Positions 1,517 to 64,000 are shown, numbered from the stretch's first letter. The stretch: DNA of 64,000 nucleotides from an uncultured virus (IMG/VR IMGVR_UViG_3300017917_003066) (IMGVR_UViG_3300017917_003066), one strand, 5' to 3'. A program made the numbers and translations. The notes: generated by a model from the sequence alone, not told the origin.

Positions 1517-2226
1517 TATAACTTGAATCTTAAATTATCAACCCAAGAAGATGGCGGTGCATCATTTTCTGTATCAGGAATACCATCACCATTCCAATCT
1601 AAATAAGTAGAAGCCCAACCAATAGTTCCATCAGGTGAATCGCCACCACTAGGTAAATCAGATTGACTAGTGATTTGTGTCATTAAAGTCATTTCAACAA
1701 TTGTTATTCCAGACTCTAATCTAAAAACAATCTTTGAGTGTCTTCTAGCAGATAAGACAGTATTTACAGCAAGTGAATAACCAATGTTACCAACAGGTTG
1801 AGATAAAGCTGACTCAAAAAACATTTCACTATAAAAGTAAATCACATCTTCAATAGTTGGAAACTCATAAGTGAAATCATCTAACTTAGTGAAATTAATA
1901 ACTGAGTAAGTTTCACCTTGACCAGGTCCTAACAGGTTATTATTTAGTATATTATTAACAGCATTATCTATATCTATTTGTGGATATACCCAAGCAGTAT
2001 CTTTATAAGTAATCCAATTTTGAGTTGGTGTACCACCACCGGCACCAGCAGCAGAAGATGAACTATTAGATAAAGATTCATATATCTTATTTTGTCTAAC
2101 CCATTCTTTTCTTTGGGCTTCTCTAATATCATTTAATTGTTTTTCTTTTTGCAATTCTGCTAATCTTCTTTCTTGAGATTCTTGTTGCATTCTTTGCCAT
2201 ATTTCATCTAATGATTTACCTGCCAT
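1513..2226 (-). CDS. hypothetical protein
   Basis: 237-aa ORF with coiled N-terminus and S/A/G linker. Confidence 0.75.
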   Translation of the reverse strand: MAGKSLDEIWQRMQQESQERRLAELQKEKQLNDIREAQRKEWVRQNKIYESLSNSSSSAAGAGGGTPTQNWITYKDTAWVYPQIDIDNAVNNILNNNLLGPGQGETYSVINFTKLDDFTYEFPTIEDVIYFYSEMFFESALSQPVGNIGYSLAVNTVLSARRHSKIVFRLESGITIVEMTLMTQITSQSDLPSGGDSPDGTIGWASTYLDWNGDGIPDTENDAPPSSWVDNLRFKLY

Positions 2227-46191: not shown

Positions 46192-47280
46192 TTAGTTAAT
46201 TTCCTCTCCGGTTTCTTTGTAAGCCGGGTTGATGATTTTCAAACGAAGTTTAGTACCATCTTTAGCATCACGGTCAATGTAAGGACGAAGTACAACACCT
46301 TCACGGATATGTAACTCTTTACCAGACACTAACTCATTTCCCTTACAAAGTTCTACGACATCTTTTGGAAGGATGAAGTCAACTCTTGTCTTACGGATTC
46401 CTCTTGACTCATCTTCATAAAGAACGACTTCTTTAGATTCTAAGTTAAGAGTACCATCGTAAATGATTGGTACCCACAACTCCCTCAATTCATCAGGTAC
46501 CATATCGTAAGGGATAGATTTACCATTTACCCTAACATCAAACAACCTTGTGGTTGGATTTGTTTGTCCGTAGTTATATCCTTTTTGAACAGGAACAACT
46601 TCACCAAACACTTGGACAACACCTTCTGTAAAATTATTTCTAATTCTACCAACAATGTTATCATTTTTAGCCGCTACCCAGTATGTGTTGCCTTCTTCAT
46701 CTTGAAGAGACAAACCAGACTTTAACATACCTTTAGAACTTACAATGGTTTTCTCAGTTTCAATCTCATGTGCTAAGATGAATTGAGAACCATGTACTTT
46801 CTCAGTGATAACAACTCTTTCACCTCGTACTAAATCATTAACATAAACATTTGCATGTTCACAGTCGTGATTTCCAATGTGTGGCATATCAAATCTTGTC
46901 ACACTTCCAGCCAAGTGAACTGGAATTGGTGGTTCGTATTTAGTGATACCTAAATCTTCTGAAATATCTACACCAACAGTATAGCTTTCAAAGTTAGGAA
47001 CTAAATGTTTAGGAATGATAATCCCAGAAGAGATTTCATTTCTAAGACGAACCGCCTTTACCCTATCTTTATTTGGACCAGAAAGATACTTTTCATATTC
47101 TGCTTTAATCTGTCCAGTAAGTACAGATTTTTCAGGAGCGAATACTACTTCATCACCGGTTTGATAAAGACCTTTTTGAACTACTACTTGGTAAGAACCA
47201 ATTTTTGCAAGTTCAAGAGCGTCAGCGTTCGGGTGAACGAATAGCTCGATTTTTTCTTTAGATACTTTAAAATTACTCAT
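46192..47280 (-). CDS. RNA ligase, DRB0094 family
   Basis: HPNADALEL N-terminal OB-like module; TEKVHGS motif I, FGE, EGVVLR, LKIIN. Confidence 0.85.
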   Translation of the reverse strand: MSNFKVSKEKIELFVHPNADALELAKIGSYQVVVQKGLYQTGDEVVFAPEKSVLTGQIKAEYEKYLSGPNKDRVKAVRLRNEISSGIIIPKHLVPNFESYTVGVDISEDLGITKYEPPIPVHLAGSVTRFDMPHIGNHDCEHANVYVNDLVRGERVVITEKVHGSQFILAHEIETEKTIVSSKGMLKSGLSLQDEEGNTYWVAAKNDNIVGRIRNNFTEGVVQVFGEVVPVQKGYNYGQTNPTTRLFDVRVNGKSIPYDMVPDELRELWVPIIYDGTLNLESKEVVLYEDESRGIRKTRVDFILPKDVVELCKGNELVSGKELHIREGVVLRPYIDRDAKDGTKLRLKIINPAYKETGEEIN

Positions 47281-47309
47281 TTCTTTAAATTTAATTTGTT
47301 TAACAATTT

Positions 47310-47335
47310 GGGTTCGAGTCCGTCCTGTGCCACCA
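47310..47335 (+). other. tRNA 3'-end remnant (T-loop, acceptor strand, CCA)
   Basis: GGGTTCGAGTCCGTCCTGTGCCACCA with no 5' half. Confidence 0.5.
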
Positions 47336-47406
47336 ATTAAATTCTACCTAAAGAGAAGAAATTAACATCACAAAGATAGTAATATATTAATTAAAAACAA
47401 AATAGT

Positions 47407-48150
47407 TTAAAGATTAAATTTAAATCCTGTTAATTTTTCTACATCTTCTTTTTTAACAGTCCATTTATCTAAACCAACTGGTTTATCTGGAGTATTGTTA
47501 AATATGTAACACTCATATGTTTTAGTTTTCTTTATGTAAATAACTTTCCAACACTTTGATGGTATGTGTAAATTAGCTATAACAAATTGACTACCAGTTG
47601 AGCCACACCAAACATAAATTGAATCGTGAGTGGCGGCTAGAAGTCTCGTTCTTTCTTCTAATCTTTTCCAATCACCAGCATTTAAAGAGTGATATTGTGG
47701 TGCCATATTTGTAAAATAAAAGCACTCTTTTTGTAATTTCTGAGCATCTACTAATTTACCGTTAACAGTTATTGGACATTGATTATCAGCAGCAGGTGAC
47801 ATATGTCCTCTATCAAAGCCTTTTAATCCTTTTTCTTTTTGAGATTTATTTGCTGCTTCGTATTCTTTTTGAATGTCTGTTTCTTTTGGTAATAATGGAT
47901 CTGGTCCGAATTCATCTTTTCTAGGAATTTGATTACAAACAATTCTTTCTTTTGTGTCCCACCATTGAACCATTAAAGGATAATCTAATGTTGAACTCCA
48001 AAGTGTTTTGTAACCAAGATGAACTAAAGTGACTGTATCACTTGGTATTTTATTTATTTCTTGTTGACTTTGTGTTGCTTCTTTAGTTGAAAAGCTTAAT
48101 GTTAATAATACAGATGTTAATAATAATAAAATAGGTAATGTTTTTTTCAT
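47407..48150 (-). CDS. DNA/RNA non-specific endonuclease, secreted
   Basis: DRGHMSPAAD, FYFTNMAPQ..SLNAGDW..LE; signal peptide. Confidence 0.9.
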   Translation of the reverse strand: MKKTLPILLLLTSVLLTLSFSTKEATQSQQEINKIPSDTVTLVHLGYKTLWSSTLDYPLMVQWWDTKERIVCNQIPRKDEFGPDPLLPKETDIQKEYEAANKSQKEKGLKGFDRGHMSPAADNQCPITVNGKLVDAQKLQKECFYFTNMAPQYHSLNAGDWKRLEERTRLLAATHDSIYVWCGSTGSQFVIANLHIPSKCWKVIYIKKTKTYECYIFNNTPDKPVGLDKWTVKKEDVEKLTGFKFNL

Positions 48151-62561: not shown

Positions 62562-62590
62562 AAAAAAGACCCAGCTAAAAGCTGGGTCTT
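62562..62590. terminator. intrinsic terminator at the 3' end of the large ncRNA
   Basis: A6-GACCCAGC-taaaa-GCTGGGTC; U-tract on the minus strand. Confidence 0.8.
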
Positions 62591-62592
62591 AA

Positions 62593-63505
62593 AACGCTGA
62601 GATTACACGTTCAGTGTGACATCTTTGACTGGATTATTGTTTCCCAGTTTTATCCACCATCTTTTGAATGGTATCGTCACAGTGACGGTTAGTTAGACTA
62701 ACCACTTCTTGAGTTACTGAATACTCTCCACTTACTCTGCTTACTCAACCCTCGCAGGCTGATTCGGGCTTCGACCCCCTATAAGTTTTTCGATGAAATC
62801 ACATCAGCCTTTCGAGCATCAGTGGCTATGGACATCCCATAACTAAGTAGTCACCTTTCATCAGTAACTAGGTAACACTTTCGATTTTAGATTAAGTTTT
62901 TACGCCAAATGTAAAATTTAAGTGCTGTAGATTATGTCGAAGTAGTGGTTACCTCTCAGCTCCCAAAGCTTTTGACCTCAAGAATACTGGACTACTCCGT
63001 GTGATGCCTCCATCACAACTCTTTAAGATATCTTCACCACGACTCACCTTGCGGTTTATCTACACCCTTGGTAGAGTGATTAGTGTTCATTAACAGCACC
63101 ACCTGTACAACGAATTGTCTTTCGACTTTGAGACACCTCTCAAGTTGAAACTCGCAATTATAATGACTGGTGGGTCACCATTTCTTGCAAAATTTCTACA
63201 GGTTATTCTTATTGCTCTTCCGAACTCAACTGAACAATCTACACTTGCCCAGTCACTAATCCATTTCCCTACGGAGTTACCCTCAGTACTTCAGGCTTAG
63301 TGATATCCTGCTTGCTTACTCGACCTCAGTTACCCAAGACGCAGACACAATTTGCAGTTGTGTCCACTTTATCCCCCTTTCAAGGTTTATTTAACGACTA
63401 TAAGCGGCCGTTGCCTTCACATCAACCGAAGTTGATGATCCAACAATATCATTTAAGGCTCAATAGACCATCTGTCTACCAACTTTCGTCTCTTGTGAGA
63501 GAACC
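62593..63505 (-). ncRNA. large ornate non-coding RNA, possibly GOLLD-like (ends approximate)
   Basis: ~900 nt, GC-richer than flanks, no credible ORF, many hairpins and long-range complements, between a tRNA array and a terminator. Confidence 0.6.
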
Positions 63506-63580
63506 TTTTATTTCAAAGAACTTACTTTATATCCGACGTTTCGGAAAAGTTTAGAAATTTTTTTCAAATTTCTTTTTTAG

Positions 63581-63667
63581 TAGCGGGAGCAGGATTCGAA
63601 CCTGACGTGTCACTTGCGCAACCCTGGGTTATGAGCCCAGTGAGTTTGACCTCTACTCTACCCCGCG
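63581..63667 (-). tRNA. initiator-like tRNA-Met (CAT) with an atypical long variable arm
   Basis: C1:U72 mismatch; CTGGG-CTCATAA-CCCAG; extra GTTGC-GCAA-GTGAC hairpin; GGTTCGAATCC. Confidence 0.75.
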
Positions 63668-63676
63668 ATATATTTG

Positions 63677-63772
63677 TAGTCGGTAGTGGATTCGAACCAC
63701 TGTCTGATATCGGAAAAGATATCTGTCCTGTTCACTCGCGCGATTGTGAGTTTGCCACTAGACGAACCGGCC
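63677..63772 (-). ncRNA. tRNA-Glu-like RNA with ~25-nt D-loop insertion and 8-nt anticodon loop
   Basis: GGCCGGT TC GTCTAGTGG[ins]AGGAC A GATAT-CTTTTCCG-ATATC AGAC AGTGG-TTCGAAT-CCACT ACCGACT A. Confidence 0.7.
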
Positions 63773-63782
63773 ATATTTTTTG

Positions 63783-63946
63783 TAGCCCGTAGAGGATTCG
63801 AACACTCTGTTTTCTAACCGAAAAGTTAGACGTCCTAAACATCAGGTCATACTTATTTTGGGTGACGCTCCCAATGGTTACCAACTACTGGATAAGTATT
63901 TTTTTGACCGTCTGTTTCTCTTGCGAGTCCTGTAGACGAACGGGCC
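63783..63946 (-). ncRNA. tRNA-Glu-like RNA with ~90-nt structured D-loop insertion and 8-nt anticodon loop
   Basis: GGCCCGT TC GTCTACAGG[ins]AGGAC G TCTAA-CTTTTCGG-TTAGA AAAC T-arm ACGGGCT A. Confidence 0.7.
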
Positions 63947-63956
63947 ATATTTTTTG

Positions 63957-64000
63957 TAGTCGGTAGAGGATTCGAACCTCTGTCTGATATCGGAAAAGAT
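63957..64000 (-). ncRNA. third tRNA-Glu-like copy, truncated by window end
   Basis: matches 63677-63720 except for one compensatory T-stem pair. Confidence 0.65.

Follow-up and report, generated by a model that had tools for sequence, protein, structure and literature searches.

Tandem Glu-type tRNA-derived RNAs beside GOLLD in a giant lake phage belong to a conserved family

The window analyzed here is a stretch of 64,000 nucleotides (nt) of DNA from the uncultured virus IMGVR_UViG_3300017917_003066 (IMG/VR), and its last bases carry tandem RNA units derived from tRNA-Glu that lie next to the giant RNA GOLLD. These Glu-like units are conserved kin of phage tRNA-derived RNAs found beside GOLLD, here in a giant lake phage. 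On the minus strand, read 5' to 3', the locus consists of copy 3, a spacer, copy 2, a spacer, copy 1, a spacer, tRNA-Met, GOLLD and a terminator. Two units are complete and one is cut by the window edge at base 64000, giving a total of at least three. In the following list, R1 denotes a covariance model built from 27 insert-free units, and MFE denotes minimum free energy.

63957..64000, minus strand: copy 3, the edge-cut Glu-like unit, present as its last 44 nt only, beginning within the 3' part of the anticodon arm and ending at A73; R1 42.4 bits, 5'-truncated.
63783..63946, minus strand: copy 2, a complete Glu-like unit of 164 nt; acceptor stem fully paired with G1.U72; a one-base T-stem bulge that is kept in relatives.
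63837..63933, minus strand: D-loop of copy 2, 97 nt; a GNRA (GCAA) hairpin (63918-63927) followed by a long hairpin with a three-way junction in the MFE fold.
63813..63830, minus strand: anticodon arm of copy 2; stem of 6 bp, UUUUCG loop.
63677..63772, minus strand: copy 1, a complete Glu-like unit of 96 nt; R1 73.4 bits, E 1.1e-21; cloverleaf in the MFE fold; a C3xA70 mismatch in the acceptor stem.
63730..63759, minus strand: D-loop of copy 1, 30 nt; one small hairpin insert, with a homologous insert of better-paired stem in relative L205.
63706..63723, minus strand: anticodon arm of copy 1; palindromic stem of 6 bp, UUUUCC loop with C at position 37.
63582..63666, minus strand: tRNA-Met (CAT), 85 nt, called by ARAGORN and by Rfam (RF00005, 41.6 bits); initiator-like by inspection; a GCAA-capped hairpin in the variable arm.
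62594..63575, minus strand: GOLLD RNA; conserved 3' domain at 62594-62999 (RF02032, 275.9 bits, E 1.2e-77), with the 5' domain inferred to reach ~63575.
62566..62590, minus strand: intrinsic terminator directly after GOLLD; an 11-bp stem with 6 G-C pairs, then a T-run.

The spacers between copies 3 and 2, between copies 2 and 1, and between copy 1 and tRNA-Met are each 10 nt long, those between units being AT-rich, in agreement with a preliminary description of this DNA, which had reported at least three tandem copies with AT spacers of about 10 nt. The same description had noted a CTTTTC[C/G]G loop on unlike stems (GATAT/ATATC versus TCTAA/TTAGA) in both complete copies, as was found, and a single compensatory T-stem pair (AGTGG/CCACT versus AGAGG/CCTCT) distinguishing copies 1 and 3, which indeed differ at exactly 2 of the 44 visible positions. 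Its variable D-loop cargo was recovered as D-loops of 30 nt in copy 1 and 97 nt in copy 2 versus 7-8 nt in relatives free of inserts. The nested stems it drew in copy 2 are present in the MFE fold and are kept in relatives through compensatory changes, and the giant RNA with which it grouped the units is GOLLD, to which they are linked in relatives as well. R1 matched copy 2 at 63783-63848 only (43.7 bits), because the insert breaks the alignment. The 5' extent of GOLLD was inferred from the GOLLDs of the nearest records, LR745206.1 and LR756502.1, together with the distance from the tRNA to the 3' domain, which in relatives is 490-600 nt. The neighboring tRNA-Met shows as initiator-like traits the 5' end CGCGGGG, a 1-72 mismatch and a GGG/CCC run in the anticodon stem, and it owes its length to the variable-arm hairpin. 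No sigma-70-like promoter-like site was seen between the units on the minus strand of the window which, with the terminator placed right after GOLLD, makes a single precursor the simplest reading.

Relatives of the units were collected by pattern scans and by R1. Scanning viral contigs with a unit-only pattern gave 94 loci, in which 16 (on 13 contigs) were real units and 78 were chance matches in coding sequence; almost all of the 16 lie on contigs of 150-480 kb. Metagenomes, scanned with a specific pattern, yielded 65 loci, of which many hold 2-4 units in tandem. R1, a model of the kind that the preliminary description had put forward for searching phage metagenomes, found 203 matches in 80 sources. 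The best 150 of these 203 matches reduced to 99 distinct rows, comprising 90 with the family-type anticodon arm (the 90 family rows below) and 9 ordinary tRNAs. The family thus defined holds about 90 distinct sequences, mostly on phage contigs of 150-640 kb. The nearest records, LR745206.1 (635 kb) and LR756502.1 (642 kb), come from uncultured huge phages whose GOLLDs share 75-80% identity with that of the window, and both contain Glu-like units in the position adjoining GOLLD.

Existing tools largely pass over the family. The window copies were called neither by ARAGORN nor by Rfam even at E<=1, and no known RNA family was found for units or inserts at the Rfam gathering threshold or at E<=1. 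Insert-free relatives match RF00005 weakly, at 30-48 bits, and are labeled by ARAGORN as tRNA-??? with 2- or 4-nt anticodons. An identity with YrlA or Y RNA was rejected on finding no match to the Rfam Y-RNA models at E<=1. No published description of the Glu-like family was found in the literature searched; earlier GOLLD papers or their supplements could list flanking tRNA types.

The units keep the body of a tRNA, and of tRNA-Glu in particular. Alignment, pair counts and window folds give a cloverleaf with a 7-bp acceptor stem, a D-arm with G18G19 and a T-arm with a TPsiC-type loop. Among the 27 insert-free relatives, 97.5% of cells gave standard pairs versus 74.9% in shuffles, and none of 500 shuffles reached any observed measure. 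Changes on both sides occurred in 15 of 22 pairs, and pairing fell to 30-54% when the partner column was slid by 1-3. The acceptor helix is 99.5% paired, and the four D-stem pairs, including U13.G22, are invariant (27/27). In E. coli tRNA-Glu, the identity elements for glutamyl-tRNA synthetase (GluRS) are U11-A24, U13.G22 with A46, and a 4-nt variable loop without residue 47. The same signature was found in the units: U11-A24 and U13.G22 in 27/27, an invariant variable-loop A, and a variable loop of 4 nt. The ends are likewise those of a tRNA, with intact acceptor stem, A73-C74 and elbow. For the two window copies, thermodynamic folding gave weak z-scores of -1.73 and -0.53; the case rests on covariation. 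The units are selected, non-canonical tRNA-Glu-derived RNAs whose body is under purifying selection, as the preliminary description had surmised and as the covariation and the roughly 90 distinct members now document.

The anticodon arm is the part that departs from the canonical form of a 5-bp stem and 7-nt loop, having one extra base in the family rows and a pair between positions 32 and 38. About 20 different anticodon-stem sequences were seen, all pairing. In the 90 family rows the 32-38 pair is C-G in 83, U-A in 4, G-C in 1 and G.U in 1, with one row gapped; two of the three collecting patterns (the viral unit scan and the metagenome scan) forced C32 and G38, and the one that left both positions free returned only complementary 32-38 combinations among real units. 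The pair was never found open, whereas the outermost pair 27-43 is unpaired in 8/27. All 90 loops, so delimited, have 6 nt: UUUUCG in 51, UUUUCA in 27, UAUUCR in 6, UUUUCC in 5 and CUUUCC in 1. The 32-38 pairs make the arm best read as a 6-bp stem with a hexaloop. The 8-nt anticodon loop of the preliminary description can still be read formally, as 5 bp plus 8 nt presenting UUUC or AUUC, although 32 and 38 pair. Furthermore, the first loop U and the last loop purine could pair in 84/90 rows to leave a UUUC tetraloop, as U33 and R37 do in the MFE fold of copy 2. The anticodon arm has thus been remodeled and probably closed, as judged from these alignments.

The second departure is a set of inserts of about 12-112 nt, every one of them at a single D-loop site, which follows G18G19 and precedes the 3' D-stem strand. 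Resulting D-loop lengths are 7-11 nt (no insert), 19-23, 27-30, 34, 39, 49-50, 56, 93-97, 108 and 120 nt. Three types of insert were distinguished. The first is a single 8-bp hairpin; the second is a GNRA hairpin (CUC-GCAA-GAG, CUC-GUAA-GAG or CCC-GUAA-GGG) followed by a 7-bp hairpin with a covarying stem; the third, to which copy 2 of the window belongs, extends the second type by a three-way junction on its second hairpin. The insert of copy 2 is near-identical in L181/L184, and L033/L107 and L170 retain its architecture while their inner stem differs in a compensatory way. The small insert of copy 1 recurs in L205. Since insert types recur and their hairpins covary, the inserts are selected RNA domains and not junk. 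They are a natural case of structured RNA carried on the tRNA elbow, of which no description for bacterial or phage tRNAs was found in the literature searched.

Linkage of the units to GOLLD was assessed with a GOLLD profile built from 8 Rfam-confirmed 3' domains, the scans for units having used no GOLLD sequence. GOLLD lies within 2 kb of 42/65 metagenome unit loci by the profile, versus 0/78 chance-match viral loci, and within 1.5 kb of 8/16 real viral unit loci by Rfam. In four of four whole records, all units (3, 2, 2 and 2) are at the GOLLD locus and none elsewhere. The 42 non-redundant GOLLD loci were gathered via the unit, and their fractions are conditional on unit presence: units are upstream in 29/35 assessable loci, tRNA-Met is upstream in 23/35, and a unit starts 8-13 nt past the GOLLD 3' end in 15/40 assessable loci. 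The element abutting the GOLLD 5' domain is either tRNA-Met or a unit. In all these arrangements the units are outside GOLLD, either past its 3' end or ahead of the 5' domain or tRNA-Met, and so differ in place from tRNAs of the GOLLD linker. The finding defines a specific, conserved class of RNA partner, confined in whole genomes to GOLLD loci, and provides a new handle on the role of GOLLD.

A direct contact between the UUUUCR loop and GOLLD was considered in the form of kissing at one conserved site. The motif [CT]GAAAA was found in 24/33 GOLLDs, but control motifs of the same composition were equally conserved, and the base before GAAAA did not track the unit loop variant; kissing was rejected for that site.

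Several other small RNA features were observed around these loci. A second tRNA-like RNA is present upstream of tRNA-Met and GOLLD at L001 7355-7442 (-), L013 64-149 (+), L030 215-301 (+), L163 and L187; it has a class-II-type body with a long variable arm, a 5-7-bp anticodon stem and a short non-conserved loop, and is labeled tRNA-??? by ARAGORN. No Rfam family was found for it beyond a weak tmRNA hit, and a Y-RNA identity was rejected, since neither L013 nor L030 gave one at E<=0.1. Between consecutive units in many loci, where the spacers are 79-84 nt, lies a conserved stretch of ~80 nt with several hairpins and one GAAA loop (L013 ~1375-1450; L077 ~1590-1665, minus strand), possibly another small RNA belonging to the module. 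A repeated promoter-like motif, TTTGGT[A/G]GA..AAAAA, then TATCTTTGTAA ~20 nt on, precedes units and some short hairpin RNAs; its sites include L001 7200-7330 and 7480-7560 (-), L002 7080-7200 (-) and the minus strand of L033 upstream of units, and it may be a phage-specific promoter. In LR745206.1 and LR756502.1, many canonical class-I tRNAs (L139-L146; Lys, Asn, Gln, Glu, Arg, Thr) reach 81-92 nt through small hairpins in the variable arm, of which several are GAAA-capped; GNRA-hairpin decoration of tRNAs seems habitual in this clade. A tRNA with a 4-base anticodon call (gtag) by ARAGORN is at L142 665-738 (+) of LR745206.1, within an Asp/Pro array.

The window has 29.8% G+C, and a Pfam search of 36 of its open reading frames (ORFs) identified accessory genes, among them those for an RNA ligase, a non-specific endonuclease, an ATP-grasp protein and a patatin; composition and gene mix fit a large phage. 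No tRNA-specific enzyme adjoining the unit locus was found among these ORFs. The RNA ligase gene (46192-47280; PF09414 with a PHA02142 OB-fold domain) stands beside that of the non-specific DNA/RNA endonuclease (the pair spanning 46192-48150 on the minus strand), and the ligase could participate in tRNA repair.

The reading that we favor, to which we would give about an even chance, is that the units are paralogues of phage tRNA-Glu, converted into tRNA mimics that do not decode, and form part of the GOLLD module. Canonical tRNA-Glu genes are in fact present elsewhere in the two largest relatives. LR745206.1 and LR756502.1 gave 61 and 50 tRNA-model hits, respectively, and their main arrays contain canonical tRNA-Glu UUC and CUC with 7-nt loops, which have G1.U72, A73 and C74 in common with the units; the units are therefore extra paralogues there. 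In a 98%-complete phage of 483 kb, only 4 tRNA-model hits were found in total, yet two units flank GOLLD, and outside the GOLLD locus nothing scored above 32 bits with the Glu-body model. As a mechanism, we propose that the units would be transcribed on one precursor with the initiator-like tRNA-Met and GOLLD, and would be cut out like tRNAs by RNase P and 3'-end enzymes (RNase Z). The intact acceptor stem, A73-C74, elbow and tRNA-Glu signature of D-arm and variable loop are what should let these enzymes release them as tRNAs, and since units abut GOLLD, their excision would also set GOLLD ends. The released RNAs would be L-shaped, with the remodeled arm (32-38 paired, UUUUCR, often closable to a tetraloop) at one place and modular hairpins at D-loop position 20 at another; they would not take part in translation and would bind either the GOLLD cage or a factor that recognizes tRNA-Glu. 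A tRNA-Glu-recognizing protein (GluRS, a U34-modifying enzyme or a nuclease) is suggested by the conserved UUC loop together with the D-arm signature, and the GOLLD cage by the GNRA hairpins and exclusive GOLLD linkage.

A number of observations weigh against this reading. GOLLD does not need the units: in a sample of GOLLDs ascertained by GOLLD itself, with a strict 20-base pattern, the 8 viral loci comprised 4 with units, 1 with tRNA-Met and a canonical tRNA-Glu (UUC), 1 with tRNA-Met only and 2 with no nearby tRNA, a sample that missed known GOLLDs (on the contigs of L013 and L033) and is too small for a frequency estimate. In Acinetobacter phage Herod, the tRNAs that surround the GOLLD-like segment are ordinary ones. 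Conversely, 23/65 metagenome unit loci are without GOLLD in the flank examined, as is a clade of 270-350 kb contigs (L006, L041, L048, L069) in which the anticodon stems are 3-4/5 paired. In the window itself GOLLD ends at a terminator, so that no unit is needed to form its 3' end there. The support drawn from the 32-38 pair is lessened by the C32 and G38 imposed in two of the three patterns that collected the family. Finally, U33, UUC and purine 37 are kept in 84/90 rows; a decoder would keep the same bases, and a role in processing alone would allow them to drift.

In the tRNA-Glu-bearing locus of the GOLLD-ascertained sample, the order is GOLLD, tRNA-Met, canonical tRNA-Glu (UUC), and the units look to be a lineage-specific offshoot of an older GOLLD neighborhood with Met and Glu tRNAs. 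Separately, loop-enlarged tRNA-Glu genes with 32-38 paired and no GOLLD in the flank were observed on other, mostly smaller contigs (L133, L067, L127, L191, L038, L042); L133, L067 and L127 have a standard GTCCC-type acceptor stem, and L133, L067 and L038 encode CCA. Their existence means that loop remodeling may predate the GOLLD-linked family or recur outside it.

A bolder proposal, which we regard as possible but on the improbable side, makes GOLLD and the units a two-part, RNA-only system, with the units as tRNA-shaped adaptors or cargo for a nanocage. GOLLD has been described as forming a 14-mer RNA cage of unknown function, and in the portion of that work available its authors speculate that the cage may hold phage tRNAs (PMC12286853). 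If the proposal is true, the elbow modules (GNRA hairpins, three-way junctions) and the closed arm would dock the units to the cage or load them into it, and the cage would store, deliver or withhold a Glu-tRNA mimic, possibly together with the initiator tRNA, during infection.

Among the alternatives to a non-decoding GOLLD partner, the best surviving one, still unlikely in our estimation, is a decoy or sponge: the units would mimic tRNA-Glu and sequester a host factor that either attacks its anticodon loop or depends on it (for instance an anticodon nuclease, a U34-modifying enzyme or GluRS), their altered loop geometry would allow binding without consumption, and the position at GOLLD would reflect no more than shared strong expression. 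In favor of a decoy are a conserved UUC-containing loop of changed geometry, several copies per phage, the invariant tRNA-Glu signature (U11-A24, U13.G22 and variable-loop A, 27/27), and real tRNA-Glu genes elsewhere in the two largest relatives. Host defenses that cleave tRNAs and phage tRNAs that escape them are well documented (PMC10264068, PMC11555353, PMC13056530). However, no defense nuclease specific for bacterial tRNA-Glu was found in the literature searched, PMC10264068 mentions neither Glu nor decoy nor insertion, and sponging leaves the exclusive GOLLD placement and the structured elbow inserts unexplained.

Working decoders are rather less probable. Insert-free units would be charged with Glu and would read GAA/GAG as nuclease-resistant spares, or GAAA/GAAG (GAAU for the UAUUC variant) with a +1 frameshift, the latter having been proposed as quadruplet decoding in the preliminary description. 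Outside the loop everything that tRNA-Glu needs is kept, namely acceptor stem, A73, elbow and D-arm signature; U33, UUC and purine 37 are retained in the 84 rows mentioned above; the extra base is only U or A, as a fourth anticodon base might be; and 8-nt loops are able to decode in yeast mitochondrial tRNA-Thr (PMC7609411, as far as its passages on this tRNA go) and in frameshift suppressor tRNAs. Against this stand the 32-38 Watson-Crick pair, the ability of U33 to pair with R37, the C37 of window copies 1 and 3, and the many units that have 20-112 nt of folded elbow RNA yet an identical arm. In addition, the two largest relatives already possess canonical tRNA-Glu, and in whole records units occur only at GOLLD and never in tRNA arrays. 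Codon usage speaks in the same direction. GAA accounts for 828/15,504 codons in 71 window ORFs and is followed by A 297 times versus 295.6 expected (chi-square p=0.41, four following bases); neither A nor U is depleted after in-frame GAA, and there are ~300 GAAA sites in 64 kb. The lack of in-frame GAAA avoidance argues against efficient quadruplet decoding, and decoding of GAAA is accordingly disfavored.

Far less plausible is the idea, also raised in the preliminary description, that the units are intron-bearing tRNA genes whose D-loop inserts are removed after transcription to leave a Glu-like tRNA of ordinary size. A single insertion position, a body common to insert-free and insert-bearing units, and the RNA ligase gene of the window would suit it, but that gene is 16 kb away, and the inserts are self-contained hairpins with no exon-insert helix in the folds, so that no bulge-helix-bulge is apparent by inspection. 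No Rfam intron or ribozyme match was obtained even at E<=1, the insert stems covary as if needed in the mature RNA, and splicing would leave the odd anticodon arm unexplained. Decaying tRNA-Glu pseudogenes left in a tRNA array beside GOLLD can hardly be entertained, for the acceptor-stem mismatch of copy 1, the one clade with poorly paired anticodon stems, and the failure of ARAGORN and Rfam to detect the window copies are outweighed by covariation in all variable helices, a loop conserved in about 90 distinct sequences (6 nt in 90/99 rows) where the random decay envisaged in the preliminary description would have left neither, conserved and covarying insert types, and conserved placement.

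Taken as non-decoding mimics of the GOLLD module, the units can be compared with four known systems. Canonical tRNA-Glu (UUC; RF00005) has the same 7-bp acceptor, GUCU/AGGAC D-stem with U13.G22, G18G19, 4-nt variable loop and TTCGAAT T-loop, whereas the units have an arm one base longer with 32-38 paired, a hexaloop, inserts to 112 nt and placement only at GOLLD. Downstream of MALAT1, the tRNA-like element mascRNA is released by an RNase P cleavage that forms the 3' end of the long non-coding RNA. By analogy, the units may be seen as tRNA-shaped, probably non-decoding elements that in 15/40 relatives lie a few bases past the 3' end of a long structured RNA; the two belong to different domains of life and have no homology, and in the window the units are upstream of GOLLD, which a terminator ends.

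An 8-nt anticodon loop is known from yeast mitochondrial tRNA-Thr (PMC7609411), and that tRNA and the suf-class +1 suppressors (SufJ, PMC4238358), so far as the relevant portions of these papers describe them, resemble the units in having an extra base beside an otherwise intact anticodon. The units differ in their Watson-Crick 32-38 pair, in their often large elbow inserts and in a genome without GAAA avoidance; PMC7609411, a review of non-canonical tRNAs, does not mention phage, and its D-loop passages that were consulted concern other tRNAs. A further comparison is with the tRNAs that flank published GOLLDs. In the available parts of those reports, GOLLD occurs near tRNA islands, env-38 GOLLD is downstream of Met-tRNA, and tRNAs are sometimes present in the internal linker (10.1101/2024.12.08.627333, PMC12286853, PMC12990946, PMC6582537). 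The window shares the placement of GOLLD beside tRNA genes, including a tRNA-Met directly upstream. The published neighbors, as these parts present them, are ordinary tRNAs, islands, or a linker tRNA or pseudo-tRNA; the window family, by contrast, is Glu-derived, has a remodeled arm and elbow inserts, and stands outside GOLLD. In conclusion, the general statement that GOLLD occurs near tRNAs is turned into concrete features open to test, namely modular hairpins on the elbow and a probably closed anticodon arm of Glu type.

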